A DNA stretch of 64,000 nucleotides. Origin: Marsupella aquatica (lineage: Eukaryota; Plantae; Marchantiophyta). The first letter of the stretch is position 1. Every line of letters starts with the position of its first letter. The notes beneath the pieces are model-generated. The model made no database searches. It had not been told where the DNA came from and saw only the letters and a program-made list of their open reading frames with translations. Made by a program: the position numbers and the translations under genes. Below, in pieces: positions 3,519 through 30,523 of this stretch. The stretch covers positions 8,146,234 through 8,210,233 of the forward strand of contig OZ316894.1 in assembly GCA_973895155.1 (NCBI GenBank), given 5' to 3'.

Positions 3519-6500
3519 ATGGACGGAAGAGGTATTCTTGCTGGGATTCTGCAGTTGCTGCTGATTACATCGACCGTCGGTCCAATTTTAGCTCAAAGTG
3601 GTGAGTTTCCCTTGGCTGTAAATTGGTTAGATCGAGAGTTGGTGGCTTTGGTCGGCCTGGCCTCTACTCTCTGTGTCAAATCTAATGACACAGAGAGTAG
3701 AGTAGAGGCTAGGCCGACCAAAGCCACCACGTTTTACCTTTGCTCTCGTATACATTTTCTCACCTGAAGCACGGCTCACAATGACGAAACTTTGAATTGT
3801 AGACGAGCTTGTGCTAGACGAGGGGACAATCGGTGCGAAACCTCGATTGAATTTGATCATTATGGTTGATGGGATGCAGGCCTGAAAGACAGCGTGAGCA
3901 TTGATTGCGGGAGTGATAGGGACTACACCGACCCAGGGAGTCAAATCAACTGGGTCGCCGATGCTGGCTACATCTGGACAGGGACGAATGCGCAGAACAT
4001 CGCCGTCGTCGATACTGCGAGCATCAACGTAAACCAATCATCATCGTTGCGGTACTTTGACGAAGGGCGAGAGAGAAATTGCTATGTCCTGTATGTGGCC
4101 ACAGAGAACACTTACCTCGTTCGCGCTGCCTTCCACTATGGAGACTGGACGACCCTTGCAAACGTCACGAGCTTCGCAGTCTACCTCAATGGCAACCAGT
4201 GGCTGAACATGTATTTCGATCAGAGTACGTGTGACAACTTACCTCGGACAATCAGCAAGAATGGAATCAATGAAGAGACGATAATTAACTATATCTGCAC
4301 AATGTAATTTATTTGTATGGTTTTGTCACTACATTGATAATTTAAGTAGTGACAAGTTCGACATTCAACAACCGTCATTACGGGAATCTGTCTTCTCGAA
4401 TTGACGGATTGGTTAACATCTTAGGGGACAAACAGGAATGCTACCCACAAATCAAGGTCGCGTTCAAGACAACTTTTACTTAAAACTGAAGTGGCCTGGA
4501 CGATTAATTTCATGTGACAATTGACAATTGACTGATGGCTTCTAATTCACCCTCTCAGTTACGTTATTGACAATTGACTGATGGCTTCCAATTCACCCAC
4601 CGCGATTTCCCAGAAGTTTTGATAAGAAGACCGTGCGGGCCGGGTACTTTTTGTTCTGGTTTGCAGTCACTTCAACTTTTCCAACTCGTTTCTTTGCACT
4701 CGAGCATGCAAAGTAATTCTCGTGGGTTGGGTTTATGTAATTATCTTGCACGTACGGGGCACAATTTGATCCCGGGTAACGAAATTTGATGGGTATATAC
4801 GAGTAGGAAATGGAGGGAATGCTTTTAGCTTGAAGAGCGCTTTCGGGAATCAATTGTGTATGACCTCTACATTCTACATTTGAGTCTCTCACTTATAAAC
4901 AGAGGGGAAAATCCCAATGTGTTTGAATGATGCTGCTTTGGACCTCTTAATGAAGGGAATGCTTTTTTCGTGACTGACTCCTTTGTATATGACTTCTACA
5001 TGCTACATGAGTCTCTCATTACCAGAGGAACTATTGAATGTGGTTGAATAGTGCTGCTTGGAAAATTTGTTGCATATCTGATTCAAAAATTGTCGTTAAG
5101 TTGGGCACTAATTTGGGGAGCTCTGTTCGTCTGTCATATTCTGATTTCGGGTGGGATTTGTCATAAGAACAGGTGGTTACTACCCGACCACGTTATGGTA
5201 TGAGGCTTTCGTGTACATGACCACCCCCATCCTCGATGTCTGCCTGAGGAGACAGGAAGGGATGCCATTCATATCTTCGTTAGAGTTGCGGAAAATGGAC
5301 ACTGGAATGTACTTGTCTGTGGTGGGGAATCACAAATACATGGGCACGACCACAAGAATCAACGCTGGTGCAACTCTAAACGGTCCTTATCTCAGGTATG
5401 CCGCCCCACCAAAACGGTAATTGCAGTGCCGACTGCAAGTGCTGATAGTCAATTGTTGTTTATTTAGATTTTGAGATTAATTTCTCAACTTGGTTTGTCT
5501 TGTTTTGATGATCGATCTTTCTGATTTCCTTGCCTGCAAGCAGTTCGAGTGTGAAATTGTTTCCTGACCTTGTTTTAGCCCAACTGCCCCACCGTGATGC
5601 CTTAATTAGTTAGCAAAGCCCATTATTGACGCTATTGCCGTATCTTATTGTCATGGGCGACCCTCAAGGAGCTTTCAGCTCGGATTAATATATAGGGCCT
5701 GCAACCTTAATTGCCTCCTTCCTATGTAAGTTCATGGACGTGTAGCTAAATTACCCTGAATTGTGCGCTTGGTCATAGGTATCCAGAGGATGACTATGAC
5801 CGCATTTGGTCAGCACCAGGGGATTGGGCCAAAGAGCTTCTGACTGTCAACACGACCAATCTCGCTTCAAATGGGCTGAAAGAGCGACCACCAGTGAAGG
5901 TAATGGAAGATGCTTGGCACTATTCGCTCGGGTTCAGTTACACTCACATATACGAAGGGGTCACTTCCGTTGGTCAAATTGCTACCTACAGCTACTTCCA
6001 GGACATCGGTGGATCAGCCAACGCTACCTACGTCAGAGGGATGCAGTACATCATCAATGGTTTGCTCATCGATACGTTCAATTTGACGTCAGATCAACCG
6101 TACGAGGTCAAAAGTTGCATCCTGGATATCTACGATCGAAATAGCGTGACCATCGCTGTGCAAAAAGATCCTTTGTCCGATTTGGATCCCATCTTAAATG
6201 CCTTTGAGATCTACTTAGTGCAGGATTGGGACGGAATATCAACTGCCAGCCAAGAAGGTCAGTCCAAATTGTTCTTCTGAATTTGAAGCTTTGAATTTTA
6301 CTAGCTGTTTTTAGGACAGTAACATATATACATGATTTATCCTGACAGGTGGGACATCGAATGTAGAAGTGCTCCTCAGTTGACTTCCAGCCGGGCGTCC
6401 ATTTTACTACTAGTATCTGCCATGCTAGGGTTTAATATAAGGACTGAAAGAAAGAAAATTAAATTGATTCAAAGGACAGCGTTTCAGTGGCACTCTGTTT

Positions 6501-9500
6501 GGAATTTTGAGCTCCAATCTGTTTTGAGTACTTAAAGTCTACACATTCTTGAATAGATTCGTTTGGGGCCAAGGTACTAGGAAGACAAGTTTCATTCTCT
6601 CTAGCTAGACTGACCCACTAGTTACCCAAGCTAGATGTAAGAGTACAAGGTAGCATCACTTCCAACCACATCAATCACGATAAACCCTACGGTGCACTTT
6701 GTTATGTCAAAGCTCTATTAGTCATGCAACAGTGAAGTTCAAAATTGCTCACAGACAGGTCTTCAAAATATTGCCCGCATAGAATTCAATGAGTTGAAAT
6801 TTGTCGATGCCAGTACGCACCCATTTACAGCTGTAGATATTTGCTTGTTTGAAATGGTGACGCGGCGTATCTGCAGTGAAAGTAATTGAAAATATCAAGG
6901 TCCTCCTCAACTTGAGCGACTGGACTGGCGATCCATGCGTCCCAGTTCCTTACGATTGGTTGCGGTGCGAAAACTATTCCGCCAACCACAATTACGCCTC
7001 CCTAAACAATCAAACAATATCGGGGGGAAGGGTGACCGCTACTACAGTCATCACAAATATGTGAGTACTCCTTCGATGGAATTCGCTGCCGTTGAGCCCA
7101 ATACAGTTCAGAATTTAGTGACAAATATGTGAATTGAATCGGTGAGTATATATATATAGAATTCCTGCAAAACTCTGTGAGGCAAATCCCTAAAAAAATT
7201 ATGCGAAGCGTTACTTTTCGGCAAATATGTTAGACAATTACTTGACATGTTAACAGAGTTCATGATTATTAATGCATCATATTGCATTGTCGTGTCGTTT
7301 ACTCATGGTGATAGGAACTTGAGCTATACAGACATGGCGAGTATTCCTTCCATTGACTGGAGCACACTGGGGAATCTTACTGGCTTGGACTTATCTATGA
7401 ACAATTTCGGTGGCGATGTTGTAACGTTTGTACAAAACGTCAGTATGATCAAAAGTCTACAACAACTGTGAGTGCGAACCATTTTTGTACGAGATAGAGG
7501 ATGTTGGACCTCCTTAGTCATTTGAGCACTTACTAATGCAGGATCTCAACCGATTGCACAATATATAATATGTTAATATTCTCAGCTGATCTAGCTAGCT
7601 TTACCTTTGTTTCGACCAAGTTTACCGTCCTTTCTACTGAATCGAATTCAATTCTAGACAGATGTGAAGTGGCGTCCTCTGGAGGGGTGTTGGGTTTGTA
7701 TATAACGCATACCAAATGTTCTCCACTAACTTGTTCCATCCCTTTGATTTCAGAAATGCGGCGAATATGAATTTGCTTGGAGAGTTTCCACTTGGCCATT
7801 TATATGACACTGGGATGTTCCCAAACTTAACAGAAGCGTGAGTATTGATAGTGCGATCTTGTATTTTATAAATTTAGTTCGTGATTTAGGCCATACATTC
7901 GAGCTTCTCACATAGCCAGACACAGGTGCTATTTGCTCTTATTTGCTTCCGCAGCTTACAACCCGCTCTATCCTATATGGATCATCTAAATTGGTTGAAG
8001 CTGGATGATCACTACGTACCTGATATGGTCCGTGGCACAGAATGACCTGCAAAATTTGTAAATCTTTGAATCTTCAGATATTTCGACGAAAATCCGTACA
8101 TCCATGGGATTTTAGATCTCACTAGTTGGCGAAAGGCTTTGATATCTTGGAATGCTGCCAATGCCAACGACAATGTGAAAGTAGCTGGGAATTTTTCTCT
8201 GTTGACCGGGCCATCGCCAGGGTTTCCAACGATTTCTTTGAGGAACAACAATATTATTGACATACATCCCAGTCTGGAGGATATGACGTCGGACATCGAC
8301 ACATTTCTGCGGGGTTTTGTGAATCGAGCCGACTCTTTCGTCAACTATGGCATTTTGTAAGCTACCTACCTACGTTCCTTTCCATTTCTGGTTTCAGATG
8401 GGAAGAAAACAAATCGGACAGGTCTCTGAATAATTGTTGCAATCGCTTGTGCCTCAGCAATTTGTACAGTCGTATTTGGCACGTAACTAGTGCCTGGTCG
8501 TGTGAATGGACGAGATTTCCAGAAAGCAACCGCATGTAATTAATTCATCTGAGGGGCATGGCACATTCCGTGGTCAGTATTCGTGTGTACGTACATATTC
8601 TGCTTGTTGCTATTGGTTCGTTAGACTTTTGACAGCGAAGGAGCTGATCATCCCATCGATCTTGCCAGGCTTGGTGGCAACCCATGGTGCCTGCAAACGG
8701 ACTTCAGCGCTCAACCTCTTTCTCAACAATACCTATGCCGTTCGTCCGCCAGCGATTATCTTCCCGGTGAGGTTGCAACATTCACAGAAATCAATTGTTT
8801 CTCTCTCAACCTACATTCACTGATCATCACAGGATACAGTTCATGCATATATACCCGTCGTCTATATTTGAGCGATTCAGTACGTACTCACAGAATTGGT
8901 TACTCTGAAATTGGTCATCGTGATAGCGATGTACACGAGAGCACAAAAGACTTCTGCCCTTAAAAGACTGAAACTTTTTGTGAGGTATAGGTCATGAATT
9001 TATTCCCTGGGAGGCCGGACTTGAAAGTATCGTGCTGGCCAGAGCTGACAAAAACTGTCTACTGTCAGGCTTATCGAGCTTGAATTCTCCCCCAAAGGCT
9101 AAAGACATGGGCGCTATTATTGGTGTCGTAGTCGGAGCCTCCGCCTTGGTTGCTATCGTTTGCTTCGCAGCTATGTGGTGGTCCAGGAGCAGGTTGAAGA
9201 AACAAACGTCTGCTCTCAAGGAGATCCAGGACGGTGAGAATTGAGTCTACATTACGTTGGCCATTTCTCTTTCGCAACCCTGTTCTGCATTCTTCAGGCT
9301 TGGGATTGTTGAGCCCTCCTTAATTCCTCGATCCAAAAGTATCGTGACTTCTTACTTTCTTCACCCACACTCTGCAGCTTTGGAGAGACAGAAAGTACAG
9401 CCGCCGTTCTATAAGTACGCTGACCTACGAGCGGCTACAAATGAGTTCTCCTCCGGAAATGAACTGGGACATGGAGCTTTTGGTAACGTTTACAAGGTAA

Positions 9501-11720
9501 TTGATGTAAATTAACTTTGTTCCTATCTATCCGCCAACTGACAGTTCTGAACCAACTTAAGACTTCGGTGCATAGATATATATGAAGGGTTGATAATTGT
9601 TCAACAATTGCTTGAAGTAATATGAAAGCCAAACAAAGCTGCTTCAGTTTGCACATCGCATGCATGTGCATGCTCTCACAGCCTCAAAAGTTAGCATTGG
9701 TCCAAATGACGAACATGCGACGATCGATGTGACATGCTCCACGCAGGGAACGTTATTGGACAGTAGAGATGGAACAGTAGAGCAAGTTGCGGTGAAAAAG
9801 CTGTACCCCTCGAAGCAAGCGCTGACAGAGTTTCTGAACGAGGTAGTCCTGATCACCGGGATTAAGCACCGTAACCTGGTTCAGCTGAAAGGCTGTTGCA
9901 TTCATAAGACCGACATGCGCATGCTGGTGTACGAGTATGCTGAGAATGGCAATCTAGCAGAAGCACTATGGGGTATGTACGAGTCGATCTTCGTCTTAAT
10001 TTGAGTACATTTCAACAATGCAGATCTTGTTCATGTGAGGTGATGATTGATCGGTACGTAGATATATTGCAAGGATATATCAGGTCTGTGCTTCGGATGT
10101 GTAGCAAAGTCTGCATGTTGTCATAATATACTTACTCTTAACTAAATGGTGTTTTAGATCGGATAGAAATACATGCTTATAGTATATCAGATTGATAAAA
10201 GTTGCATTTCGATGTGTTATTTGCAAACAGATAAGGGTGGTAAAGAGGAGCCGAGCAGATCTACTCTAGACTGGCAGCAGCGGTTGAATATTTGCGTGGG
10301 AATTGCTCGTGGGCTCTCATATCTCCACGAAGAGCTGCAACCTCGGATCATTCACAGAGACATAAAACCTCCCAACATTCTAATGGACAAGAATTTCAAT
10401 CCCAAGATTGCGGACTTTGGAACCGCTCGCTCTCTATCGGAAGAAATTGAAGCCGAAGACAGCTTCACAAAAAATGTTGCTGGGACTAAGTATGTAAATA
10501 GCTTGTAACACCTGTCCATTTGCAGGAGAGAAATCAAATTGAGTTCTTAAATGTAGCTAATAAAATGTACCAACTCTTGACACGAGAAACGTTCGATTTA
10601 CGGATTTGTCAATTAATTACCTTGTGCTCCTATAGTAAGTTGTGGTAGCCACGTACTGATCTGTCGACATGTTGTGTTTGGTTAAATTGACAGAGGTTAC
10701 TTTTCTCCAGAGTACGCAACTAACGGCCAGCTGACGGAGAAGGCCGATGTCTATAGTTTCGGAATTGTTCTATTGGAAATTGTTAGCGGGAGGAGATGCA
10801 TTGACCCTCAATTACCTGTTGAAAGACAATTCCTCCACAATTGGGTAAGCTCAAAATGTCCACCAGTACATGACTCGTATATATTAGCAGATCCTATCTG
10901 ATCGATAGGCTTGGCTATTCGTTGATGTTACACGTGCTGTGCAGTATATAAGTGAAATACAAGTCCAGGTTTCGAGAAAATTTTACGTATGAGACCTCGA
11001 TCACGGTATCTATCATGTGGAGATTTGAGAGAAAATTCATGAAATCTGGAAACAAAAAAATGGGCCGGCGGAGAATGAGCAACTAGCTCATTTGTGTTGG
11101 CGTGAACAACTTTGTGCCGAAAAATATTTTCGTCCTCTGAAACAACTCTCTTTAAATATAGAAATGTTGTGACATTTTGTACAGCTCCCGTTCCTGCCTC
11201 GTGTCCTGCCTCTATATTTATCAATTTCGGTCTAGCTTATTCATGACGCATGTCTCAGGTGCACGTTCAGATATGGCGCTCTTGCGCATAATATAATCTT
11301 TGGTGTACCAGAATCTGATCAAGCAATTATAATTGTTCACATGTGCAGGCTCGAAAGTTGAAGGACGATGGTGGGAACCTGCTAGATTTGGTTGATCCTA
11401 CTGTACGAAAGACTGCAAACGATGAAGAGGTCTTCCGAGTGATCAATATCGCATTTTTATGTCTCGACTTCTATCCAGAAAAGAGACCAAGAATGTCAGA
11501 GGCAGTAAGCATGCTCCATGGACTAATGGATGTCACATTCTACAAGCCGGAATCAAGTACCAATAGTTTAAATTTTGGCCGACCAAGGTCTCAACACAAC
11601 TATGTGAAGCTTGCTTTGGACCAAGTTTGTGAAGAAGATTCAATGGACAGCCTCTTGATGACTGGTACCTCAAGCGAGAGTAACCGTGACTTGGAGTTGA
11701 CTAGGCTGTCAGCCAGATAG
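3519..11720 (+). CDS. Malectin-like domain / LRR receptor-like Ser/Thr kinase, paralogue 1 (about 15 exons)
   Basis: Signal peptide [19 protein letters not shown]; malectin-like motifs [40 protein letters not shown]; WTGDPCVP; LRR exons; [24 protein letters not shown]; kinase [38 protein letters not shown]. Approximate GT-AG exons: 3519-3600, 3880-4224, 5173-5395, 5779-6257, 6877-7040, 7315-7467, 7754-7837, 8078-8356, 8669-8766, 9069-9233, 9378-9496, 9747-9973, 10231-10489, 10694-10844, 11350-11720. Confidence 0.92.
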
Positions 11721-14893: not shown

Positions 14894-15694
14894 TGCAGCA
14901 TCGCCTCGATGGGCTCGGGAGGGCCGGCGCTGTCTTGCCCACAGCCCACACCATCACCACTCGTCAGGCCTGGGCAGGGCAGGGCCGTTGCAGTGAGGGT
15001 GGGCAGCCCTGCAGCGGACGTGCTCACAGGGGGTCGGCTGGGGCGACTGCCAGGACCTGGGCAGACTGCTGGATCGCCGGGCAGGCTGTCGGGGTCCTTT
15101 ATACCCCGACTTGTGGTTTAAGTTTCCCTTCGTGAGGGCAAGTCACCCTCACATCGCCCTCCATGAGTTGCCTCGCCCGGCTTCCCTCGCCCGGCTTCCC
15201 TCTCGACTCTCCCCAGCCAACTGCTGACTCGCCCTCCCTTATTTAGCTTGCACACCACCTCCATTAGGGCGTCGCATCTATGCCGGGCCTGCGCCAGGGA
15301 AATTCCAGGTGCCAATACCCTGAAGTTTTGTACTGGCTTTTTTAGTGACCCGGTTGTCCGCTGTGTCCGCTATGCTTGACTCCGTTTAGGTTTGAGGCAA
15401 AGTTCAAACCCCATTTTGCCACACCCAGTTTTGAATCCCGGTGTTCATTATGAAGTAGTGATTAGAGGTACCCAGGTGACTGGAAGGATCCTGGAAAGGT
15501 ATAGGGTTGAGACCCCCTATTGCGCAATCTTGGACAGTGTGAGGCTTGGGGTCTCCTGGTCTCAGGTCCAGGCGTCTAAACTCCAGGTCTTGGAGTCTTG
15601 GGCCTAATTAAGTGTCTGAACTTGGGGTCTTTGTTAGGTGAGGTTGGGGGTATTGGGTCCACGCGCTTTGAAGTCGGAGAGTGTGAGGTCAGTC

Positions 15695-16052
15695 TGTCAT
15701 GCCGAGGGACAGTGCCTCTTATGCACATCGGCATGTCCCTCGCCTGCCCGCTAGGTATGTAGTTAGGGCTAGTGTACTACCTGAGTTAGCGACATGTTCT
15801 TGTAGCAAGTCTGGGCTGTTCTTGAAGCAAATGTGCTTGTTAGTGTGACGCCAGGACTTTGCTTGCTTAGGGCATGTCTTTCTTTGTGGGTTTTTCAGTT
15901 CTTCTTGAATCGCTGTTGACAGAGCTCAGACAGTGCTCGTCGGTTCCATACACGGGATTCACACAATGATTCGTTAGATGCTCCCGGCCGATCTTGGCAT
16001 CCTGCCGGTTTTTGATTCGATTTCAGTATAATTGTTTCTCTTACGCCTTTTA
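15695..16052 (+). repeat. Split repeat A1 (358 bp)
   Basis: Matches 24961-25318 with about 6 substitutions counted by eye. Confidence 0.95.
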
Positions 16053-16065
16053 TTCAAGAAGAACT
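16052..16065 (+). promoter_or_regulatory. Putative self-priming primer-binding site
   Basis: ATTCAAGAAGAACT at the end of A1 is the exact reverse complement of AGTTCTTCTTGAAT at 15897-15910. There is no TGG tRNA-type PBS here. Confidence 0.75.
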
Positions 16066-16197
16066 CCCGAGTTGGCAGTGAGGGGAAGAAGCTTGCTCGT
16101 GACGATTTCGATAATTTCTGGTGAAGCCATTGCAATTTCTTCGACGAACATCGAAGCGACGAGTTGAAAGTTATGGGTTTATGTTGTTATGTGTATA

Positions 16198-17221
16198 CTT
16201 AAGTGTATACACATATCAATGCTCCCGAGGAGGTCCAGAGTTCATTTTCTGGTTGCATCCGCGACCCCTTTGCTCCTTCTTACTGTTACTGCCGCTTGCT
16301 GCCGCTTGTTGCCTCGACTGTTTTTGGGGCCATTTTCGCATTCCCGGCCACAGCTGCCGGCGAGTTTTGCCTCGGCCGCAGCGAGACGCCTGCATAGGGC
16401 CGTGTGCCCTCGTTTCGACACGCTTCCACCCCGGCCTCCTCTTTACGTTTTCGCCTTTGGGGGCCCCGTTTTCTTCTCTTTCTCTCGACCTCCTTCCGCT
16501 TTGGTGTGCAGGCTGTACATAGGGCATCGTGCCCTTGCCTCGCCCATTTCTAAGCAGCCAGACTGCCAGAGGAAGGGGAAGGAGCACCAGGAGAGGGCAC
16601 GAGGCCCTAGGCAGCATTAAAGAAGGGGGAGGGGGAGCGAAGGCAGGAGCGCAGGGAGAGGGCACGAGGCCCTATGCTGCATTAAAAGGAGGAGAGGGAG
16701 TACATTCGACTCCCTCCTCTTGGGACTCACACTTCTGCCAGGCACAAGGCCCCATTCAGCATTAACGAGGGGGAGGAGTTGAAGCGAGACTGCGAGAGGA
16801 GAGGGCACGAGGCCCTATGAAGCATTAAAGGGGGAGGGGAGTTAAGTCGACTCCCTTCTCGGGAGTGCTCCTGCCAGGGCACGAGCCCAAATTACATTGC
16901 ACGAGAGGAGGGGGGGAGTTCGCAGCCCTCTATGGGGGCCCGATGCTTTTCTTTTTGCCCTTTTCGCCATCTCTTTACTTCGCCCTTGCCACGCTGCGTC
17001 TTGCCTTTTCCTCCTTACGCCTTTTGTGCTCCGCAGTATGTACATAGGGCATCGTGCCCTCCCGTTTCTTTCCCTGGCCGGCCATAGTGACTCCTCGACT
17101 TTTCCATAGCCGTCCGACTAGCGCTGCATAGGGCCGTGTGCTACGAGTGTGTATACACACTCGACTGGTCCGGCTGCAGTTTCCGGGTCCACAATGGGGC
17201 CCGAATGTGTATACACTTAAG
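16198..17221. repeat. Segment bounded by 17-bp inverted repeats, with a dispersed ATAGGGC..GTGCCCT motif in both orientations (structured leader or nested MITE)
   Basis: cttaagtgtatacacat (16198-16214) and atgtgtatacacttaag (17205-17221). Motif copies near 16392, 16515, 17040, 17126 (forward) and 16594, 16659, 16802, 16875 (reverse). Confidence 0.7.
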
Positions 17222-17372
17222 AGGGGCCCGGTTCACATATTTGACTACCGTTGCATAGGGCCCATATTTTCCCATATTTTCCCAATTTCTTTGCTGCCGC
17301 CACATGTCATCTACATAAGGTTGAGGGCCCGGCATACACATCAGACCGTCGATCCGGCAAGGACACCACAGC

Positions 17373-19349
17373 ATGTCAGCAGAGGAGCCAGGAGGTAGCA
17401 GCACATCGCCACCAACACCCAGGTACCATTTACAGAGTGATCCACGACCATTGGTGCCAATTTCATTGGAGCCTCGGCAATTTCGATGACGTCAGCAGAC
17501 AGCAGCAGTAGCACCCACACCACGCAATCCTTCTGCTACATTTGGCGGTCACTTCACCACTACTCAAAAGCCTGCTATCACTTCATTGCCATTTACCCCT
17601 TCTGCATCAGTGGTTGTTCCAGCTTCACCGACATATAGCATGGATGCTAGCCACTCATCTGGCCGCATTGAGCGCTTCAGCGGGCGGCCAGGCACTGTCT
17701 CTTTACGTGAGTTCAAATCCACTTTCTACACTGTCATTTACGAATTGGAGTTGAAGTATGGCAGCAATTTCACAAATGCTTTTGCATTTAAGCAGCTAGC
17801 CACGTATGTGCACCATGAGACGTTGGATGTGTATGAGCAACACTCTCAACGGCTGCTTGCTGTCACACAGTTGCCTAACCCTACCTATGCCAGTGCAATT
17901 ACGGCAGCCTCACAATTGGCCTTACAGAATGCCATTGCAGCCCATGCTGCTGCTCCTGCCACTTCCCCTCCTACTCCAGTTCCCACCACTGCGCCAGTTA
18001 CTCCCACTGTCTTGGCACAGGCTACATCAGGCATTTCTCCCACCATTGATTCCCTTGCCTTTGCTGATCCAGTGGCTGAGTTTTTCCAGGTTCTTGAATT
18101 GGAATTCCCAATCAAGAGTGCTGATAAAATCATGCAGTTAGCCACCTTTGTGAGGCAGCACGATGAAACATTGAAGATGATGTATCGCCGGCTTCTCAAG
18201 CTGAAGGAGGACACCCAGAGCATCACTGACCTGGAAGCTGCTCATCGCTATCTTTGCACATTGGAGGGGACACCAGCTCTCCATTCGCAAGTGTTGCAGC
18301 AAGTATTCTCAGAGTTTGGAGACAGCTACACCTTGCTCAATGTCTATGACACTGCTGAGAAACTTGAGTTGGCCCATGCACATTATGAGGCCAGTATTGT
18401 GCGTCCACCGCGATCCAGGTACCAGGCTGCTGCCCCTACACTGGCCACTCCTTCCCGTATGCCATAGTATGGTTCCAAGACCAAGCCAGCACATGCTGCT
18501 TTCATGTTGCCATCTTGCAACTACTGTGGTAACCCTAATCACAAGGCTAATGAATGTGATATTGTTGCTGAGGACCTGTCTTGTGATTTTTGCGGGAAAG
18601 TGGGCCACTTGGAGGCAGTTTGTTTTGCCAAATTCCCCGAGAGGAAGCAACTACGACAGCCGGCCACTCATCCTGCTCCTGTTTCCACTCCCCCACCAGC
18701 TAGGAGGGCTCCTACTGCATCAGTTGCTCCTCCTTCTAGTGGCAAAGCATCCAGTGCTAACAAATTGCCCAAGCAGCAACAGAAGCAACCAGCTCAAAAG
18801 GAGGCTCACAACGCATAGGCAACTCAACTCCAGTCTCTGACTCATGAGGTTGAGTCATTACGTGCCCAGCTTGCAAAAATCAAAGGCAAGTCCACTGCCT
18901 CTACTGGTCCTTCTCAACCGGCTGGTCATGTGCAACCCATCCCTGGCCCAGGCACCACTGACAGTTTAGCACCCATACCCCGCTCTTTCTATGGCATGCC
19001 ATTTGATGCTCATATGGGTGAGTGTGTGTTGTCCTCTGCTACATAGCCTGGCCTTACAGTAGAATTTTCAGATTCATTCTGCCCTTCCTATTTTGCTTAC
19101 CAGCAGGCCAGTGCTGCCTCCCGTATTGCTCCCATACGCCGCATTGTACAGGCTGATGGTCTTGCTGCTGGTCCTATGACTAGAGCCAGGGGAGCTCGGG
19201 CTGTCCTGCCCCAATCTTTTCAGCCACTCACACTTGCTGAAGAGCGCACCTTGTTGGCGAGGGGGGAGGGAGCTGCAGCTACATCCATTCCACCACCAGG
19301 TGCTGCTGACATTTCACGTACAAGGAGTTGTTCCTCCTGCGCTGCTTGA
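17373..19349 (+). pseudogene. Retrotransposon gag with two CCHC zinc knuckles, interrupted by nonsense codons
   Basis: One frame from ATG 17373 joins ORFs 17586 and 18504. Knuckles CNYCGNPNHKANEC and CDFCGKVGHLEAVC. In-frame stops at 17487, 18465, 18816 and 19044. Confidence 0.85.
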
Positions 19350-22300
19350 GCATTTCACCTCCGGTATGGCACAAAGGATTCTTACAACTGCACTTTTCAG
19401 TTGCCATGATTTACAGCTGGATGCTAGAGCTGTCATCAGAGGGCTAGAGGGTTCACTGCATTCTTCATCAGCCCCTGTGACACCGGTTTTGGAGGTCCAA
19501 TCTCATGTACATAGTGGACCTTCTTCTTCTCCATTACATGTTTCCACTGGTTTGGCTGCCCCAATACCGATTGCTGCTGATTGTGTGACCAGAGCTACAC
19601 TTGATTCTGGTCATGCTGCTCCATCTTTCCTGGCTATGTTGTTGAGTGGAAAGACCGTGGATACTAACTCCCTTCACAAGGTACCTCATCATTTGCCGAG
19701 AGTGGTGCCTAGTGATAGGACTTCAGTTTCCACCACCATTGCCATTGTTGACAACAGGAATTCAATGGTCAAGTTGGAGGGTCACACTCCTCAGGTGGTC
19801 ATGCTAGACACAGGTGCTCAACCAGTGATATTGGGCATTCAGTTTGCCAAGAAGATGGGATTGTTGACTGATCATTTACAGCAATCCAGGTGGCACATTC
19901 GGACTGCTAGTGGCACTGTGGAGGATGTGCTGGGTGAGAGTTCTACTTTACTCACTCTCACTTTTAATGGAGGTACAGATCAGGAATTGCATTTCCCAGT
20001 CAGATGTTTGGTTACCAATGCCACTACGTATGATGTGCTCATTGGCCAGGAGGCTTTGTTCCCACCAGGTTTTACCATTGACAATTGGCATACTACAGAG
20101 TTGATTGGCATACGGATGGCTCACACTTGGGCTACATTCCACTTGATTTGCATGGTGCCCATACACCTATGGCTCACCACTGTGTGTTGAAAGCAGTGCA
20201 CACAGCTACCTATGTCAACCACCCATTGCAGGATTGGATTGAGGAGGATGATGATGAGGTGGCTACTGCACATGCTGCTGTACGTATAGTAGCACTTTCC
20301 AGCAACGTGGATCATCAACCAGAGGTGGTACAACGGCTCCAAGCAGCCCATGGACCTTTGGTGGCTGCATTGCGCAAATTTGAGGATCTAGGGCAGCACA
20401 ATGGCCAACCAATAGCCCCAATCTTGAGCGCACCAGTTACATGGACTCCTCCTTCAGATGGCCTTACATTGCTTGAGCTTTTTGGTGGCATTTCTACAGG
20501 CCTGGAAGCTCTCCTACAGTCTGGCATGGTGGTGAAGCAGTACATCTATGTGGATATTGATCCAGGTGCAAGGCAAGTGTCTGAATCCCGTCTACTGGAA
20601 TTTTCAGAGCGATTTCCCTAGCAGTTTCCACACAGTGCATGGAAGTCTGCATTTTCTTTCTTTCCTCCAGATATCCAGCTTATCCAGCACCGGCACTTAA
20701 CCCTTCTTGGCTCCCTTGATTTGATCATAGCTGGTTGGGAATGCCAAGGGTTTTCAGCTGCTGGTCACGGTGCTGGACTGCATGATTCTCGTTCTGGCCT
20801 TTTCACAGCATTGGTTCAGATTCTCACCTGGGCTCAATCCCTTCATCTTGATGTTGGTTATATCATTGAGAATACTCCATCTCAGTTTGACCAGCATCCA
20901 CAGGTCAAAGAGGATTTCAGTGTGGTCCAGCACTACTTGGGACCACCCCTTCTCATTGATGTAGTGCACTGTGGTTCTTATGCACATCGTCTTCGTAACT
21001 TTTGGACTAACCTTGCACCACCTTCCTTGCTGGAGATGGCTCTTCACCACACATCCAGGGACACTAACCTTACAGTGGACCAGATTTTGGATCCTGACAG
21101 TTCTTGCCAACCAGTTACACGGCAAGAGCCAGCACCTTGGTATCCAGCCAATACCATTGGACAGCCCCGTGCTGCTTGGCCTACATTTGTGTCCTTTCCA
21201 GGTGCACATGCTTTTCAGGGTGATGGTTCTGGCCTGGTTTATCGACATTCTACCGGTACATGGGATGAACCTAGTCCTGAGGAGAGAGAACGGGCTATGG
21301 GCTTCCAACCCGGTACTACAGGTCACACCAAAATCATCTGGCTGGCCAGGAATGCTTTACTTGGCAGGGTAATGGATCTTAATGCTCTCACTTGGCTTCT
21401 GGTCACTTGCATCCTTTTTCAGATGTACATTCATCCAGCATCTGGAGTTCCAGCTCTACCACTCCATGGTGCTGCTACATGGCATCCAGACCAAGTGCAC
21501 TTACCTCTATTCAACACTCACCGCTTCAGTCCAAGTGTTGGGGGGGAGGAGGTCCCTTGTAATGTGGCTGACATTATTTCTGAGTTTCATGCTGTGGATC
21601 AGACCAGAGCAACAGATACAGTAGGCCTTGGAGAGGCCTCATCACCTTATCAGCAGCATGCTAGCAGCTTGGGTGGAGAGGCTAGCACTTCTGGCTCTTC
21701 AAGCACAAGTACATCAGGTCCTATTCCTAGTGTTGCCAACTACACATTCATCATGGGCAACCACCTGAGTAAAAGACAGAAGGACCAGCTGCTGAATTTG
21801 CTCCTCAAGCATGAGAACGTGTTTGCTTTCTCTATGAAGGACTTGGGTAAGTGCAAGACTATGCAGTTCTCCATTGAGTTGGCTGATGAAACACCTATCT
21901 TCAGGCGAAGACACCGTTTGAGTAAGCATGAGTGGCAGCTAGTGGATGAGAGGTGCCAAGAGCTCTATGAAGCTGGTCTTATTCAGCCATCTACATCAGA
22001 TTTTGCGGCAGCTACAGTGATGCCAGCAAAGAAGGATTCCAGTGGATTGTGGACAGAGAAGCGCATGTGTGGGGACTACAGGCCATTGAACCTGGTCACA
22101 CCCCAGGACAGGTACCCCATGCCACGGCCAGAGGAGCTATGTGACAGCATTGGAGACTCAGACATCTTCACTCTTGTGGATCTAAGGCAAGGCTTTAACC
22201 AGATTTTGTTGCTTGCAAAGGACCGCAAGAAAACAGCTTTCCATGGCAGTAACCAACTATGGGAGTGGTTGGTGATGCCATTTGGCTTGAAGAATGCGCC

Positions 22301-24743
22301 CATATTCTTTCAAAGAGTCATGGACCAGGTTCTTCAAGGTGCTGAGTTTCTGAAATGCTACATTGATGATGTGTTGGTCCACATCAAAGGATTTGACCAG
22401 CATCTACTTGACCTTGAGGAGCTATTCATGAGGCTTAAGAAGGTGAACCTAAAGATACACCCCAAGAAGTGTGAATTTGCTGTTAGATCAGTAGTATACC
22501 TTGGGCACCGCATTCTTCCAAATGGAACCATGGCTCACTGGGCCAAGGTGGTATCCATCTTGGAAATGCCCACTCCTACCGATGTTCACACTTTGAGGAG
22601 TTTTATTGGGTTGTGCAATTACTACCGGATCTACATCAAAGATTTCAGCACCATTGCACACCCATTGTATGCTTTGTTGAAAAAGAATGTGACTTGGACA
22701 TGGAGTACAGATGCTGAGGCAGCATTTGCCACTTTGAAGGAGAAGCTCTCAGAATACCCGATGCTGAGAAGACCTGATTTCAGCAAGGTCTTTGTGCTAC
22801 ACACAGATTGGAGTGCCCTTGGGATTGGTGCCATTATGGGCCAGCATGATGAGGAAGGTAAAGAGTACGTCATTGCCTATGCATCCAGGAGCAACAATCA
22901 GGCAGAGAGTCATTATTCTTCGTATGAGGGTGAATGCCTTGCTGTTGTGTGGGCTGTCATACATTACAGGCCCTACCTCTATGGGACCAGGTTTGTCCTC
23001 TACACCGACCACCAGCCCTTGAAGTGGTTGATGACCAATGACAAGCTTACTGACAAGCTTGCTCGTTGGGCGCTCATACTCCAGGAGTATGACTTTGAGG
23101 TAATTCATAGGCCTGGTGTGACACATCAGAATGCTGACACTATGTCCCGTAGCCCTTTGATTACCTCTGATGATTCCTCAGATGCACGGCAGGATTTTGA
23201 CCAGGTTTCCATCCTGCCTACATTTCATCTCGCATTTCATGCATCTACCTATCTTGCTTTGCTGCCATGCTATGTTGTTGACCAACTTGTGGTGGACATA
23301 TGGGAGGACAGCGACACTCTGAGATTTCTGCAGCATGGGGAGTACCCCACACATGTTACTACTGCCCAGAGAGACCGAATTCAGCAAAGGTCCAAGCGCT
23401 ACTTGTGGAAGGGAGATCATCTCGTGCGCTGCTTGCCAGACAGGGAAGTGATGGTTCCACCCATTCATGAGAGGGTTGGCCTTATTCGTAAGGTACATTC
23501 TGAGCTTGGTCATTTTGGCGTTAAGAGGACTTACAGCCTCTTGGTCCCTCATTATCATTGGAGAGGCATGCATGGCCAGGTTCGAGATGTTATTGCCCGA
23601 TGTGAGCAGTGTGATAGGGTAAGGACTTCTTTCACGTCTCGGCAACCCACACTTCACCCACTCCCTATTCAGGTCATGTTTTATCGTTGGTCATGTGATT
23701 TGGCTGGAGAATTACCCCTCACATCTCGGGGTAATCTCTACATCATGATCATGATAGAGCATTTCTCCAAGTGGATAGAACTTGTGGCATTGCCGGATAA
23801 GACCTCCCGTAGCACCAGCCAAGCATTCCTACAACAAGTTCTCAGCTGCTTTGGAGCTTGTGCAGAATGTCTCACTGACCAGGGTTCAGAGTTTAGAGGA
23901 GAGTTCCAGGAGCTACTTGATCAGGCCCTCATTGATCATCGCCGGACATCACGAGATCACCCACAGGCAGATGGCTTGGCAGAGCGCATGGTTCAGACAT
24001 GCAAGAAGGGCCTTCGGAAGATCTGCCTCACCAAAAACAAGGAGGATTGGGACCTGGCCTTACCCTACATTGCCATGGGGTATAGGATGTCCAGACATGC
24101 ATCACTATCTAACTTTTCTCCCTACTTCTTGTTGTTTGGTCGTCACCTAGTTCCACCTTCTGCTATTGCTGCTCACATGCTTCAGGTGGTGGACTTGGAT
24201 TCAGCTGTGACTTGGTTTGATGTGATCTCTGAGAGGGCTGCCCTATTCAGGAGGGTTATGCCCATGGCCATGGAGAATTTGGCCATTGCACAGCACAGGG
24301 ATACACTGCGTTATGCACACACACGAGGGGGCACTTTTCAGCCCAAGGTCAGGAAGTTTGATGTGGGAGATTTTGTGTACTTGCAGCGGCAAGCTAACGA
24401 CACCCTGGACACCTCTACCAGTCGCACTATTCTCAGGGTTAAAGCTATTCGACCGTCTGGAGTGCTAGAGTTACAAGGGGCAAATGGGCGCACAATTGCT
24501 GACAATGCCAAGAATTGCGCCCCTTGTCATCTGCCTAACCTGGATCCCACCATTGTGACTTCTACTTGGATTCCACCTGTGGACTATCCTTGCAAAGTGT
24601 GTTTGCGAATTGATGATGCTGACCAGATGCTGCTATGTGATAATTGCAATGGAGGGTACCATCTTTTCTGCCTTCGGCCTGAACTTACCCAGGTGCCAGA
24701 AGGGTTATGGTTTTGCCCTTCTTGTGCTCCACGTGCTACCTGA
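19234..24743 (+). pseudogene. Retrotransposon pol: protease - C5 DNA methyltransferase - RT - RNase H - integrase - PHD
   Basis: PR MLDTGAQ (~19800); frameshift ~20088; stop 20619; RT RMCGDYRPLN, PFGLKNAP, YIDD; RH HTDWS, YEGECLAV, TDHQPL; IN H2C2 plus WSCD, TDQGSEF, GLAERM; terminal C4HC3 PHD. Confidence 0.93.
20460..21405 (+). other. DNMT3-like cytosine-5 methyltransferase domain within Pol
   Basis: Motif I LLELFGGISTG, II YVDID, IV DLIIAGWECQGFS, VI YIIENT, VIII AHRLRNFWTNL, IX ERERAMGF, X RNALLGR, in canonical order. Confidence 0.9.
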
Positions 24744-24775
24744 ATTTTCTTCAGCCCTCCTTTTGGCTGTGGTCT

Positions 24776-24783
24776 GGGGGGGA
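24776..24783 (+). promoter_or_regulatory. Polypurine tract
   Basis: GGGGGGGA abutting the start of repeat B1, about 30 bp after the pol stop codon. Confidence 0.65.
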
Positions 24784-24958
24784 TACAGAGGTTTACACCT
24801 CCACTACGTACATACCACTTCATTTGCTTTTTCTTGGCACTTGTGAATGTGATTGGACTTTTGCTATGCATGTTGGTTGCTAGCAGCTTGCACTTATGCC
24901 TTGTCGGTGACTTGTATGTTTTCGATACACTATGGCTACGATACTATATGTCACGACA
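24783..24958 (+). repeat. Split repeat B1 (176 bp)
   Basis: Matches 25320-25495 with about 4 substitutions; ends ...tcacgaCA. Confidence 0.95.
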
Positions 24959-24960
24959 GC

Positions 24961-25318
24961 TGTCATGCCGAGGGACAGTGCCTCTTATGCACATCGGCAT
25001 GTCCCTCGCCTGCCCGCTAGGTATGTAGTTAGGACTAGTGTACTACCTGAGTTAGCGACATGTTCTTGTAGCAAGTCTGGGCCGTTCTTGAAGCAAATGT
25101 GCTTGTTAGTGTGACGCCAGGACTTTGCTTGCTTAGGGCATGTCTTTCTTTGTGGGTTTTTCAGTTCTTCTTGAATCGCTGTTGACAGAGCTCAGACAGT
25201 GCTCGTCGGTTCCATACACGGGATTCACACAGTGATTCGTTAGATGCTCCCGGCCGATCTTGGCATCCTGCCGGTTTTCAATTCGATTTCAGTACAATTG
25301 TTTCTCTTACGCCTTTTA
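24961..25318 (+). repeat. Split repeat A2 (358 bp)
   Basis: Copy of 15695-16052, separated from B1 by the dinucleotide GC. Confidence 0.95.
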
Positions 25319-25319
25319 A

Positions 25320-25495
25320 ATACAGAGGTTTACACCTCCACTACGTACATACCACTTCATTTGCTTTTTCTTGGCACTTGTGAATGTGATTGGACTTTTT
25401 CTATGCATGTTGGTTGTTAGCAGCTTGCACATATGCCTTGCCGGTGACTTGTATGTTTTCGATACACTATGGCTACGATACTATATGTCACGACA
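25320..25495 (+). repeat. Split repeat B2 (176 bp)
   Basis: Copy of 24783-24958; forms the right terminus and is followed by TSD AGTC. Confidence 0.95.
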
Positions 25496-26432
25496 AGTCC
25501 TATTTGGTCGTAACTCAACCCCTTCCATTGGTTCTAACTCCCCGCCAAGCCCTCGGCCTTGCTATTATATCCGACATTATCTCTTGCCAACCGGTTTTGC
25601 ACTCAAACATGCATCAATGGACTGGGGGCAATATTGGGATCAAAGTTGGTCCGGGGGTGTCAGGTCCCCAGATGCATATATGAGGAGACCAATCTACTCT
25701 CAAACATCAAATTTGAAAAGCTATACAAACCACACCCCCAACCACACCACCAACCCAAGGGGGCATGGTGTCTGAGAGTAAGGCGCCCGGAGAGAAAGGA
25801 GCCAAGTAAACTTGGATATGGTTATCAAAAGGGTTCATGCAAGGGGTAGGAAAATTGCGCCGCTGAAAGTGGGTTGAGCCATACCGTTGCCCCAAGGGGT
25901 CTCAGCATTGGGGCGGCCAAAGCCAAGTGAACTATTGTAGCGACTTAGTTTAAGCAAAGCCTAAAATAACCAAAATTGAGGTTACCAATGGGGTTCAGGG
26001 ATACAGTCAATGTGTTTTACTTCACAGTCACAATCACTAGTAGAAATACCCCCTATTTTTTACCAAACCACTATTGACTACTGTGACAAGGTTATGGAAG
26101 TTTAGGGTGTTATCACTACATATGTCTTAAATATCACTTCCACAAAGTTTCCACTCATTTGTTGCGACTCCTTTGCGATGTTGACTTTACCTACTCTTTT
26201 CAATCACTCATTCTTCAAGGTGCAAGGGACATTGTTCATGGTTCAAGGTTGTCCATGCACCTTTGAAGTTGGATGGGGGATACCACTTAATTACAACATC
26301 CCATCATAAGGAAAATGGCAGGTCCACTATCTAAGCTGATTGTCTTGGTTTAGGGTTCTTATGTGAGTGAGTGCTACTCACCAATTGCCAAACATTCAAG
26401 CTTTTTATGTGAGAAAGCTTCAAATAGTAGAG

Positions 26433-26566
26433 GTACCCCCTTACATGAGCCCCTTACATGTCACTGGCTGAGTACCTTAGTACTCTCCACCGTTGTGCAG
26501 TACCCCCTTACATGAGCCCCTTACATGTCACTGGCTGAGAACCTTAGTACTCTCCACCCTTGTGCG
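26433..26566. repeat. 67-bp tandem duplication inside the CACTA left arm
   Basis: gtacccccttacatgagccccttacatgtcactggctgag.accttagtactctccacc.ttgtgc occurs twice. Confidence 0.85.
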
Positions 26567-27511
26567 CGGGAGCAAATGTAGGGTCTTCGTCCGCAAAGAG
26601 GGTTTACAAAGGGGAGGGGAGGTGGAGCGAATGAGGCGACTCATTGAGAGGGGCGATCGATAGTCGATCAATCAAGGAGGGAACGAAGGTTTATGGAGAA
26701 ACAATGGGATTCTTAGTGTGCAGTGAGTCGGGCTCTCTGTGATTTCAGGGAGGAGGAAGGGTTTGACACCACACTTGAAGCGACCTGACCACATTCAATC
26801 GGGTGCTGGGTGCGTTTGCGAGTGCTCCCTGAAGGCATTGCGGGGGCATTGCGGGAAATTATAGGGTCGGACGCCAAGTTCGTGGTGCGGGGGTCGGTCT
26901 TCCTCCATTAGCTTTGTAAGTCTTTACCTCTTTGCCTTGCATAGCATTGGGAGATGAGAGGAGAGGAAGTGCTTCTTGCTCTTGCGGTCGAAGACTCTCT
27001 GTGATTGAAGGGAGGAGGAAGGGTTTAGGGCCACACTTGAAGCGCAACGTGACCACATTCACCCAGGTGCTAAGTGCGTCCATCTTCCGCCATTTGCTTG
27101 TTGGGTTGTTCTTCGGTCAAGAGGAGAACAAGCTAGAACAAAAACACGCTGCGACATTGGAGCGGGCGACATTGGAAGTGCCGGGTTTAGGGTGTCAACT
27201 TGTTTTCAAGACCGCTGATCTCTGGTGTGGTGTTGGGTGCGGCTGGTGTTCAAGCAAAGGTGAGAGGTCCCGTGCGACGCACTGTGGTGCTTCATTGTGC
27301 TCTGTTTGTACTCTGTTTGTTCATCTTAACTCTGGAAAATTAATGACAGCAAAAACTATGGTTCATATATAGAAGGTTGTCCCTATTCGAGACCTCTCTT
27401 GCTGAATTCTCACCTCACTCTCTCTCGCCCTCTCTCTCGGTCTCGCTCTTCCATCGTGTCTTGCTCTTCCATTGTGTCCACTCTCTGTTGCAAATTTCTC
27501 TCTCTCGCGAT

Positions 27512-28488
27512 CCTCAAGTACGTGTCATCATCTCTCCCTCTCTTATGCATGCCCATCACTATAGCAATCTCATGTCGGGGTCAGCGTCGAACTTGGATTT
27601 CACTATGGAAATGTAGATGGGATCACAGTATATTGTTGGCACTTTCATTCTGCTTCGGCTTGAATTGCTCTAATCTTATACACTAGTATTCTAGTGTGCA
27701 GAAGTGTTGTGCAGAACTAAGGTGGGGTGCGGGGGGTTTTTCTTTGCCTTTGCTGAGCTGTGATTTCAACTCAACGGTCCTGTCCTTAGTCGCTTAGTGC
27801 TTATTTGTGTCTTGCAACAACTTTTCAGACCTGCGCGCCTGCAATGCTTGTACTTTCAGAATTGCAGACTTTAGAGTATACTCTTGTACTGTCAATGACT
27901 AAATTAGAAGTTATTACGCGCGCCTACATGCTTCACTTGTGTCTTTGGAGGCTTTCGGATTAGAGGTTGCACAAAGCATGGATGTCATAGCCCTAAACTT
28001 CAAATTTTCCTGCATGCAATTCTACCTCTACATTCATGTTTCGGCAACAGGAAGAACGCAAAGGGAGCAGGTCACTCTTCCATTGACTACTTTGCCACTG
28101 TATGTATTCAATGTACAGGACATTAGTCAAATGTGATACTCTATAATGTACTCCTCCACGAACAACTAATGAGCCACAGAACTGATGAGCCACACTCTGT
28201 CTGTGGCACTTGCAGATCATTTTTCCACCCGTTCGAGAGCTTTCTCTGTTGCCAAGCTAGGCACAAAGAAATCATTCCAGGGTTTTGTCAACTCCTGAGG
28301 TCTGTAATCACTCAGAGCCCTCTACATTGTCATTGCTTTGTCTTCACTGGTGGTCTCAGGGTCGAGCGTTTGTGCTGCTTATCCTCAAGTATGTACAGAA
28401 ATCTCTCCCTCTCTTATGCATGCCCATCACTATAGCAATCTCAGGTCGGGGCCAGGGTCAAGCCAGGATTTCACTATGGAAGTGTAGA
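27512..28488. repeat. Dispersed direct repeat of about 105 bp in the CACTA left arm (27512-27617 and 28382-28488)
   Basis: Shared tcctcaagta..atctctccctctcttatgcatgcccatcactatagcaatctca..ggatttcactatggaa.tgtaga. Confidence 0.75.
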
Positions 28489-28897
28489 CTAGATTTGGGT
28501 TATTTGATTGGATTTTATGTATGGGGTGTCGATTGTATTCTACTGGCCTTCTTGCTGTGCTGAGCAATGTCCTGTTGTGGACTTTTGAATTCTTCTACTG
28601 GTTCCCCTTATTTTTGTGGCCCCCAAAATTTATAAAAATTAATGTGTGAAAATGCTAGCCCAACAATTGCCCACCTTTAATGGCAGAAATCGTTCAGTAA
28701 TTGCCTGTGTACAATCTCAGAGTCCTAAACTTAAAATTTCCTCCATGCACACAACCCGTCTTGAATTTAGAACTTGAAATTACAGTTTCTCAAATCTTTG
28801 GTATTAATTCATAGTTTTAGTTTCTCATTCTTTGCATGCTTCACTACGTCACTGACTCTAGCCATATATTGTGTTGTTTTCTATCGGGGTAGAAGTC

Positions 28898-29620
28898 ATG
28901 GCTCGTCCAAAACGGTCAGCACACAGAGGCGGATCACAGGTGAGGCACGATTCCATGAGTAGACATCATCATTGGTCCAATGCACAAATTCATCAAAAAG
29001 CCGCTCATGTCTGTGCCATTTGTGACGATGGAGGTGACCTGGTCATGTGTGATGGCCCCTGCCTAAGACAATTCCATGTCAATTCCTGGTCCACTTATGC
29101 ACCACAAAATGCATGCCCTGGGGTTGGGCTCCGGGGGGACCATCGGGGTGCTTGGACTTGCTTTGATTGTGCCACTAATATCAGCAAGTGTGCTCAATGT
29201 GGCACAAACGGCACTGTTGAGGGGGATCAACCAGAGCTGCGGAAATGTCCTGACAGGTTTTGTGTTCGTTTTTTTTGTTTGACATGCCTGCCCCATGATA
29301 ACTCCCTTTGCCCACTACATATTTGTCCTGCTTGTGGGGAGCCTGATGATGACTACTGGATAGACATGGTCCATTGTCCCAGATGTCCCATAGCCTGGCA
29401 CCATGAGTGTTTACTAGCCCTTCAGGCAGAAGGGTATGCATGTGACCGCCAAATTTATTCCCACTCTGCACACGGGGTTGATAGGTGGTTTTTGTATTGC
29501 CACCTCCATACGATTGACCCTCATTTGCAGACCCCTGCGAGAGACCACTTGACTTGGCTATTGCTGGATGATACCTCCAGCGCCAGCAACAAAACAAGTG
29601 GATCAGCACCAACAGGCTGA
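28898..29620 (+). CDS. EDM2-like (NSD-type) tandem atypical PHD-finger protein, CACTA cargo, 240 aa
   Basis: VCAICDDGGDLVMCDGPCLRQFH, CPLHICPAC, CPRCPIAWHHECL and C-terminal LYCHLHTIDPHLQTPARDH, matching the PHD region of plant EDM2 as recalled. Confidence 0.85.
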   Translation: MARPKRSAHRGGSQVRHDSMSRHHHWSNAQIHQKAAHVCAICDDGGDLVMCDGPCLRQFHVNSWSTYAPQNACPGVGLRGDHRGAWTCFDCATNISKCAQCGTNGTVEGDQPELRKCPDRFCVRFFCLTCLPHDNSLCPLHICPACGEPDDDYWIDMVHCPRCPIAWHHECLLALQAEGYACDRQIYSHSAHGVDRWFLYCHLHTIDPHLQTPARDHLTWLLLDDTSSASNKTSGSAPTG

Positions 29621-30523
29621 GCTAAATGAATCCAACATTGCACATCTCACATTTTGGACTTTTTAATGAAGTGGGCACCTCACTGCGCTGTCAACCATAG
29701 CTCAGACACACCCCGCTACAGTGAGCTATCGATCGACTTTGTGACTGCATAGTAAATTTGGATCTTGCTTTTTCAGTTCAGCCATACATGGTTCTGTCCT
29801 TATACTTTCGTACACGATGACACCTCCAAAACTAACTAAGTTAACTTATTTTTTGAAGACTGATTAAGTTAATTGCAATTTCAAAGTTAGGGCCTGCACA
29901 AGTATGTCTGTGTTTTTTCCACTTTGAGTGAATCATGTGTATGGCAAGAGACCATAACTGTGAAAGACTAAAGATTCCAAGCAGACTATTGCCTGGAGTA
30001 AAACAACATGCATGCATTGGAGTATGAAAATACATATATAGCTCAAATTATGTATTTGTTTTTGCTCTTAACAAAGGTCATCTTAAGTCGTGTGCCTGAC
30101 CCATACATTTGTACAATTACAGATGTGACTGGAAATTGGGCAGTTGAATGATATCATTCTCAGTCCCCACCACTGTCACGTAAGATACAGGTATTCAAAT
30201 GTGAATTCAGGCTATATGCAGACAAGATAATATAAAGGGCCACATGTATGCTATGTGTATACTGAAGTAGGCTGTCGCTCTACTTTCATCAATGTATTTA
30301 CATGAACACATGGTGAAAATAATTTGACTGAAGAGTATATAGTTTGTCCTATAACTCCGTGCTGGGATTTACTGCATGTATTGACTTTCGATCTTGTCAT
30401 GTGTGCCACAATCAGGGAGCTAGAGTGCACTTTGTGTCATCAGAGAGCATTGGGCTGAAGCATTGAGGGACAGGCAACGCGGGCACTGGTATTTCTCTAT
30501 TGGCTTTTATTACAGGAGGCATC

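Follow-up and report, generated by a model that had tools for sequence, protein, structure and literature searches.

A putative self-primer and its binding site in a Ty3/gypsy element with split repeats, and a proposed integration route through end-joined cDNA

Two complementary 14-mers near the start of a 9.8-kb Ty3/gypsy element (15695-25495) likely constitute a self-primer and a primer-binding site (PBS), by which the element would prime reverse transcription without a tRNA. The element lies in the 64-kb window (the whole stretch of DNA analysed), and its repeats follow the order A1...B1-A2-B2. Joined to a second proposal, that the ends of the cDNA become united and that the integrase then opens it at a palindrome inside the LTR, this pair forms an account of the element's cycle that we regard as reasonably probable. 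The features concerned are given below with their strand and supporting evidence.

15691-15694, no strand: left target-site duplication AGTC (same 4 nt at 25496-25499)
15695-16053, plus: repeat A1, TG start (integrase end), stops at the U5 end (repeat comparison, contig joints)
15895-15900, plus: initiator-like TCAGTT, predicted transcription start 15897 or 15896 (sequence; relatives have TC/TT-AGTT at the same place)
15897-15910, plus: predicted self-primer, 12 nt (15897-15908), and 2 nt pairing with the U5 end (complement, compensatory changes)
16054-16065, plus: putative PBS, 12 nt, directly 3' of U5, no TGG start (A-B joint, covariation)
16489-17060, plus: 5' leader with degenerate 60-80-nt direct repeats (repeat family D13, self-BLAST)
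17490-20187, plus: gag-like region in several pieces (Pfam, tblastn)
within 18468-18815, plus: zinc knuckle in the gag-like region (Pfam)
19180-20187, plus: aspartyl protease (Pfam, tblastn)
20244-24743, plus: Pol with Dnmt3-like methylase, RT, RNase H, integrase and PHD finger (Pfam)
24776-24782, plus: polypurine tract (PPT; G7), directly before B1 (sequence)
24783-24958, plus: repeat B1, probable U3 start, ends CA (comparison with B2)
24955-24964, no strand: palindrome GACA-GC-TGTC at the B1-A2 joint, 2-nt spacer, putative internal integrase attachment site
24961-25319, plus: repeat A2 (near-identity to A1)
25163-25176, plus: second copy of the primer sequence, inside A2 (sequence identity)
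25320-25495, plus: repeat B2, ends CA (integrase end) (near-identity to B1)
25496-25499, no strand: right target-site duplication AGTC (matches 15691-15694)

As the original prediction claimed for the A1 boundary, the 14-mer ATTCAAGAAGAACT (16052-16065) is perfectly complementary to 15897-15910; in the window copy the match breaks at the next base on either side. It occurs once in the window, and its complement twice, at 15897 in A1 and at 25163 in A2. A complement of at least 14 nt arose in none of 5000 dinucleotide shuffles of A1 (maximum 13); when 28-nt probes were taken along the window, 2 of 2271 had a complement of at least 14 nt within 354 nt upstream. The predicted leader fold is closed by the 14-bp stem with pair probabilities of 0.72-1.0, and the predicted fold of 15897-16100 as a whole is not unusually stable relative to shuffles (z -0.31). 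As had also been claimed, the upstream partner begins at the A (15897) of TCAGTT (15895-15900), a motif that we take to be initiator-like from the initiator consensus. The stretch 15897-15910 is the best-conserved part of A between the window family and the related family of locus L001 (L001 family).

The window family is present as contigs in sequencing runs X1, X2, X5, X6 and X11, of which X1 may be the one that the window itself comes from. In X1 and X2 the element is covered hundreds of times more deeply than the left flank, a ratio that is not a copy number. Unlike flanks meet at 15695 in 6 contigs of X1 and 14 of X2 (agreement 0.49 and 0.41), and also in X11, and the end of B precedes A in 10 contigs of X2. 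Neither 14-mer shows a variant among the 40 rows listed of 83 (X1, X2, X5, X11), and positions 16066 and 16067 vary. In most of the depth 16066 is G, which would pair with 15896 and add one extra pair, so that the 5' end of the primer is uncertain by one base.

The true end of the LTR had been placed at about 16052. It does adjoin the site as proposed, but the A-B joint of other copies sets it at 16053: identity between A1 and A2 stops at 16052 in the window copy, whereas contigs of other copies diverge after 16053 and then enter the start of B (X1, n=4; X11, n=1). Since B follows 16053 in those copies, U5 ends at 16053 and the PBS comprises 12 nt (16054-16065); the 14-mer thus consists of 2 nt of U5 and the 12-nt PBS.

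Repeats A1 and A2 differ at 6 positions in 358 nt, and B1 and B2 at 4 in 176 nt. The element begins with TG, ends with CA and is flanked on both sides by AGTC, termini and a short target duplication of the kind expected of Ty3/gypsy elements. Two whole LTRs at the integrated ends, however, are not found, the layout being A...B-A-B instead. B starts after the PPT and A stops before the PBS, so that the LTR as reverse transcription defines it is B+A, and the integrase ends fall at the B-A joint, inside this LTR, at GACA-GC-TGTC. The A2-B2 joint in turn unites the PBS-defined and PPT-defined ends of the cDNA; in its sequence the A-B joint looks like the junction of a 2-LTR circle.

The encoded proteins follow the order protease, RT, RNase H, integrase with a DDE integrase (Pfam), the criterion for Ty3/gypsy, and the best solved relative is Ty3 Gag-Pol (E 6e-88). 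The integrase triad corresponds to D1026, D1086 and E1121 of protein P0001. The spacing from the second D to the E is D-34-E (P0001 D1026-E1121, window 23697-23984), one residue fewer than in the Ty3 and foamy virus integrases, and it holds in all 97 proteins in which the motif was matched out of 121 (the window's protein plus the best 120 of 232 matches). No tyrosine recombinase was detected by Pfam among 20 ORFs of at least 100 aa, and no Chromo match at the integrase C-terminus, where a PHD finger occurs instead. The Dnmt3-like methylase (PF00145) is interrupted by a stop at 20619-20621; its PDB matches are DNMT3A or 3C in 15 of 15 cases, all weak (best E 4e-4).

Protein relatives among the matches listed (best 120 of 232) occur in Calypogeia, Klebsormidium, Closterium and Haematococcus. 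Together with the CACTA and copia remains near the element, these names indicate a non-seed plant. The window family is nearer to Calypogeia P0005 (63% identical) and to the L001 family than to Klebsormidium nitens P0061 (42% identity across methylase to integrase), among the matches listed, which also hold K. nitens P0103 and P0121. In the FastTree tree, built from clade members and the distant gypsy locus L080 only, support is weak at the deep nodes and a single sequence serves as root. The methylase stands ahead of RT in 11 of 117 proteins and after it in 64 of 117 (best 120 of 232 matches), the latter position being between RNase H and integrase in the proteins inspected; the two orders fall on separate branches of the tree, with Haematococcus on that of the after-RT order.

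Several other features surround the element in the window. A CACTA element (26034-39387) with 32-nt perfect inverted ends, reading CACTA after one base, encloses Tnp2/DUF4218/DUF4216 ORFs and extra genes, namely a PHD-like ORF (28862-29620) and a twin BRCT ORF (30467-31450). Diverged copies of a long stretch, 71-89% alike in pieces, lie 43-44 kb apart at about 4000-11600 and 47400-56000. A 39-nt tandem array occupies 43921-44174, and remains of a copia-type RT and integrase 58244-60019 (minus strand). At 62141-63928 the minus strand has an ORF of 595 aa that contains 93-nt tandem repeats and matches no Pfam family.

Related insertions were sought in metagenomes (79 loci, from the best 80 of 561 confirmed stretches) and genomes (two loci, L081 and L082). 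The metagenome loci belong mostly to one redundant family, the L001 family, with 60-80% protein identity. Viral contigs yielded only L080, a distant ordinary gypsy, and an algal-type alignment found no match there. L081 and L082 lie in a genome titled uncultured cyanobacterium, likely through eukaryotic contamination of that assembly.

The original prediction called for compensatory changes between the 14-mers in related families, and such changes are seen. Two paired changes, C:G to T:A and T:A to A:T, separate the window from the L001 family; two more, along with one unpaired change at the outer end, separate L025 from L081, giving four compensatory changes at the nucleotide level in two comparisons. 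Of the 16 L001-family 5' ends among the matches listed, 4 pair at 15 of 15 positions, 3 depart from this by G-U pairs alone, 4 carry a single mismatch, 3 carry 2-3 mismatches and in 2 one arm was not found. In distant families the complements, of unrelated sequence, span 13-16 nt. Perfect inverted repeats of 14-16 nt, unrelated in sequence, follow the palindrome in L001, L025, L026 and L048, and were matched in 0, 0, 0 and 1 of 1000 shuffles, respectively; L025, L026, L048 and L081 are collapsed contigs in which the LTR end is not independently fixed. In L025 (8825-8860), L081 (7226-7256) and L082 (2590-2620) the primer arm lies within a local 12-bp hairpin, of which it makes up the loop and the 3' strand, and 6-7 nt at the U5/PBS joint of these three loci recur where B starts.

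Covariation, the lack of a TGG start and a location precisely at the end of the LTR, as the A-B joint defines that end, together argue for self-priming in place of a tRNA PBS, as originally proposed. According to the accessible part of PMC6317226, the majority of plant LTR elements are primed by a tRNA or half-tRNA, and a host tRNA, whole or as a fragment, could be the primer here, with the complement in A serving as a regulatory stem that hides the site. This seems improbable given that the site begins with TCA or TCT rather than TGG, that from family to family its sequence is replaced entirely and the cis partner changes to match, and that no tRNA model matches 15600-17600, where Rfam returned three matches, all far below the gathering score. 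ARAGORN predicted no tRNA in the window and one in 80 loci, too few for a tRNA comparison. That the complement arose by chance, the layout being a one-off rearrangement or an assembly error, is scarcely credible: the two window probes that reach 14 nt speak for it, but 21 further insertions, L082 and contigs from other runs all have this layout, and covariation is present.

The B repeat of the L001 family could be placed in 51 loci, representing 35 distinct 3' ends (best 80 of 561). Twenty of these ends, among the matches listed, carry B-A-B, 14 a single B and one both forms, the last being an insertion found as A...B in one contig (L008 or L018) and as A...BAB in the other. With 14 single-B ends in 35 and this insertion in both forms, collapse or deletion must blur the counts of B; most single-B copies are without a known 5' end. 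The mirror form ABA...B was found in none of 16 distinct 5' ends (18 loci with a 5' end, best 80 of 561). Where both ends of an insertion are present (12 among the matches listed), the 4-bp duplication is exact in 5, has one C/T mismatch in 3 and is absent in 4.

The two joints behave differently across the 21 insertions among the matches listed, A-B being variable and B-A fixed. The B-A spacer is 2 nt long in 21 of 21 relatives among the matches listed (GC 9, GT 5, AC 4, AT 2, AA 1), variants that would fit decay of methylated CAG/CTG. The A-B joint, again among the matches listed, consists of the U5 end and the PPT-defined start of B in 12 of 21 and is altered in 9 by small losses, gains or retained PBS: three lack 2 nt, one lacks about 149 nt of B and four are otherwise changed. 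In L013 (13480-13545), A2 extends past its usual end, taking in the PBS and about 27 nt of leader, and only then does B2 begin. A run of G stands ahead of B in 24 of 24 relatives among the matches listed.

B1 and B2 of the same element differ by 2.1 non-transition differences, against 4.15 for cross pairs (0 of 10000 permutations), in 18 of the 21 aligned elements, leaving out L017 (duplicate), L070 (large deletion) and L074 (mis-set start). The two repeats thus share private changes, indicating that both derive from one template per cycle. The L001-family copies are old, with A1 and A2 84-92% alike. A 15-nt unit at the end of B, missing from 7 B1 and 2 B2 of the 21 aligned elements, was considered as an alternative cleavage and set aside, as L002 and L017, which are one insertion, differ in it. 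More distant families, at about 50% protein identity (L022, L025, L026, L048, L081, L082), keep the PPT, a B of about 100-170 nt and the palindrome, with a GT spacer in L025, and L082 shows B-A-B; L027 ends too early for this comparison.

Integration of end-joined cDNA at an internal site is, from these footprints, probable, and the following route could produce them. Transcription would begin at about 15897 and proceed through B1 into A2. By analogy with Tf1, the 5' end of the RNA would fold onto the 12-nt PBS and RNase H would free a primer of about 12 nt. Ordinary LTR reverse transcription, given the observed positions of PBS and PPT, would then yield linear cDNA of the form [B A]-internal-[B A], the ends of which would be joined to create the A-B joint. 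The DDE integrase would finally cut after CA on both strands at GACA-GC-TGTC of the PBS-side LTR and insert A-internal-B-A-B. The TG...CA ends, the 2-nt spacer and the 4-bp duplication are the observations bearing on this step. A staggered cut after CA at the palindrome would leave 2-nt overhangs, typical of processed integrase ends. The other, identical palindrome would not be used alone. One speculative gain from such a route might be that integration is freed from the need for clean cDNA ends.

The element had been interpreted earlier as a permuted circle. Its anatomy does fit end-joined cDNA opened internally, but a plain symmetric 2-LTR circle is rejected: having two equal palindromes, it predicts ABA...B as often as A...BAB, and the counts, among the matches listed, are 0 of 16 5' ends for the former and 21 of 35 for BAB. 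Assembly collapse or deletion could hide some ABA...B, hardly all, and its absence means that some further step must single out the palindrome on the PBS side. This strict polarity would be accounted for if self-priming were coupled to a route like that of PAT and Ngaro, which share the order A1-B1-A2-B2 (PMC4157794, accessible part): the RNA or cDNA would carry the parental B2 and A-B joint, B1-A2 would serve as a splint closing a circle, and the integrase would then open the circle. We consider this unlikely, since the A-B joint unites exactly the PBS-defined and PPT-defined ends and is variable whereas B-A is fixed, B1 and B2 are co-copied, and an RNA starting at 15897 is without the first 202 nt of A. 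Rather less likely still is that the integrase cuts linear cDNA back to the internal palindrome at either end, or linearises a 1-LTR circle, with A...B as the normal product and A...BAB arising from cDNA dimers or from capture of a trimmed B piece. The single-B ends (14 of 35 among the matches listed) agree with it, but A...BAB is commoner (21 of 35 with the mixed case), only A...BAB would give a terminally redundant RNA, and the L008/L018 insertion shows that BAB can give rise to a single B.

Circles with two LTRs are usually regarded as dead ends, and their use by integrase rests on few retroviral studies. Both the high-copy window family and relatives at about 50% identity show the internal-site footprint at every clean insertion, making the route testable with short substrates. 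More tentatively, at somewhat less than even confidence, a gypsy clade of green plants and algae (its algal branch known here from proteins alone) may have moved the integrase attachment site off the cDNA ends, its self-primed cDNA passing through an obligatory 2-LTR circle that the D-34-E integrase opens at one encoded palindrome with strict polarity. If so, this would be a retroelement lineage that naturally uses circles for integration, a route long debated for retroviruses. The palindrome is perhaps marked by the element's own Dnmt3, because the site holds CG and CHG. LTR finders that look for two complete terminal repeats would miss such elements, so annotations of bryophyte and algal genomes probably list too few of them.

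Self-priming is already known or predicted in other elements (Tf1, Tcn1, TAR), and in the accessible literature a DIRS-like layout has been noted once, for KnitGypsy-Dnmt3. New against the literature searched are the B+A LTR defined by PPT and PBS, the integrase ends lying inside it at a conserved palindrome, and an A-B joint resembling a 2-LTR junction. KnitGypsy-Dnmt3 of Klebsormidium nitens shares with the window element the Dnmt3-type methylase in a gypsy Pol and the A...BAB repeats, described as arranged like those of a DIRS element in the legend of Fig. 4c; the accessible text gives no PBS, primer, palindrome, target duplication, mechanism or PHD for it (PMC5890265). A 2026 preprint, in its accessible part, merely names Gypsy-DNMT3 (10.64898/2026.05.21.726589). 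No self-priming, internal palindrome or integration route for gypsy-Dnmt3 elements was found in the literature within reach, which takes in few subscription papers and neither Repbase Reports nor the supplementary files of PMC5890265 and the preprint.

At priming the element likely works like Tf1, and self-priming taken by itself would bring a known mechanism to a clade that lacks the chromodomain. Tf1 forms a long R-U5 duplex, unlike the predicted fold here, in which just 2-3 more pairs extend beyond the PBS. Self-priming is described for Tf1 and Tj1 and predicted for plant Tcn1, TAR and 12% of surveyed plant elements (PMC6317226, PMC4600332, PMC7175516, accessible parts), and SM-Tcn1 is a case in which neither primer type was found (PMC2864245, accessible part). 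In the parts of these sources available, Tf1/sushi, Tj1, Tcn1 and TAR share with the window element a PBS that matches part of their own 5' LTR in complement rather than a tRNA 3' end; the primer freed by RNase H in Tf1 is 11 nt long (PMC7175516), against about 12 nt predicted here. All of these groups, as far as these texts go, have ordinary LTRs with integrase ends equal to the cDNA ends, whereas in the window element the repeats are split and the integrase ends internal. Tcn1 carries a chromodomain; the window element has a PHD finger and a methylase. Lacking a chromodomain and having split LTRs, the element is not filed as a Tf1/Tcn1 chromovirus.

With PAT, TOC1, kangaroo, Ngaro and VIPER the element shares split direct repeats in the order A1-B1-A2-B2 (PMC4157794, accessible part). 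Unlike these tyrosine-recombinase elements as described there, it has a DDE integrase, a protease, a PBS, a PPT, TG...CA ends and a 4-bp duplication. HIV-1 integrase is said to cleave the 2-LTR circle junction, as does that of foamy virus. The accessible part of the foamy virus study (PMC1180852) reports integrase cleavage of palindromic 2-LTR junctions, and the window element has in common with that virus a DDE integrase and a palindromic CA-nn-TG joint in double-stranded DNA, at which a cut is proposed here. The foamy virus palindrome is made by joining of the cDNA ends, as a side route, whereas in the window element the palindrome belongs to the LTR sequence itself, separate from the end joint, and is present at every clean insertion seen.
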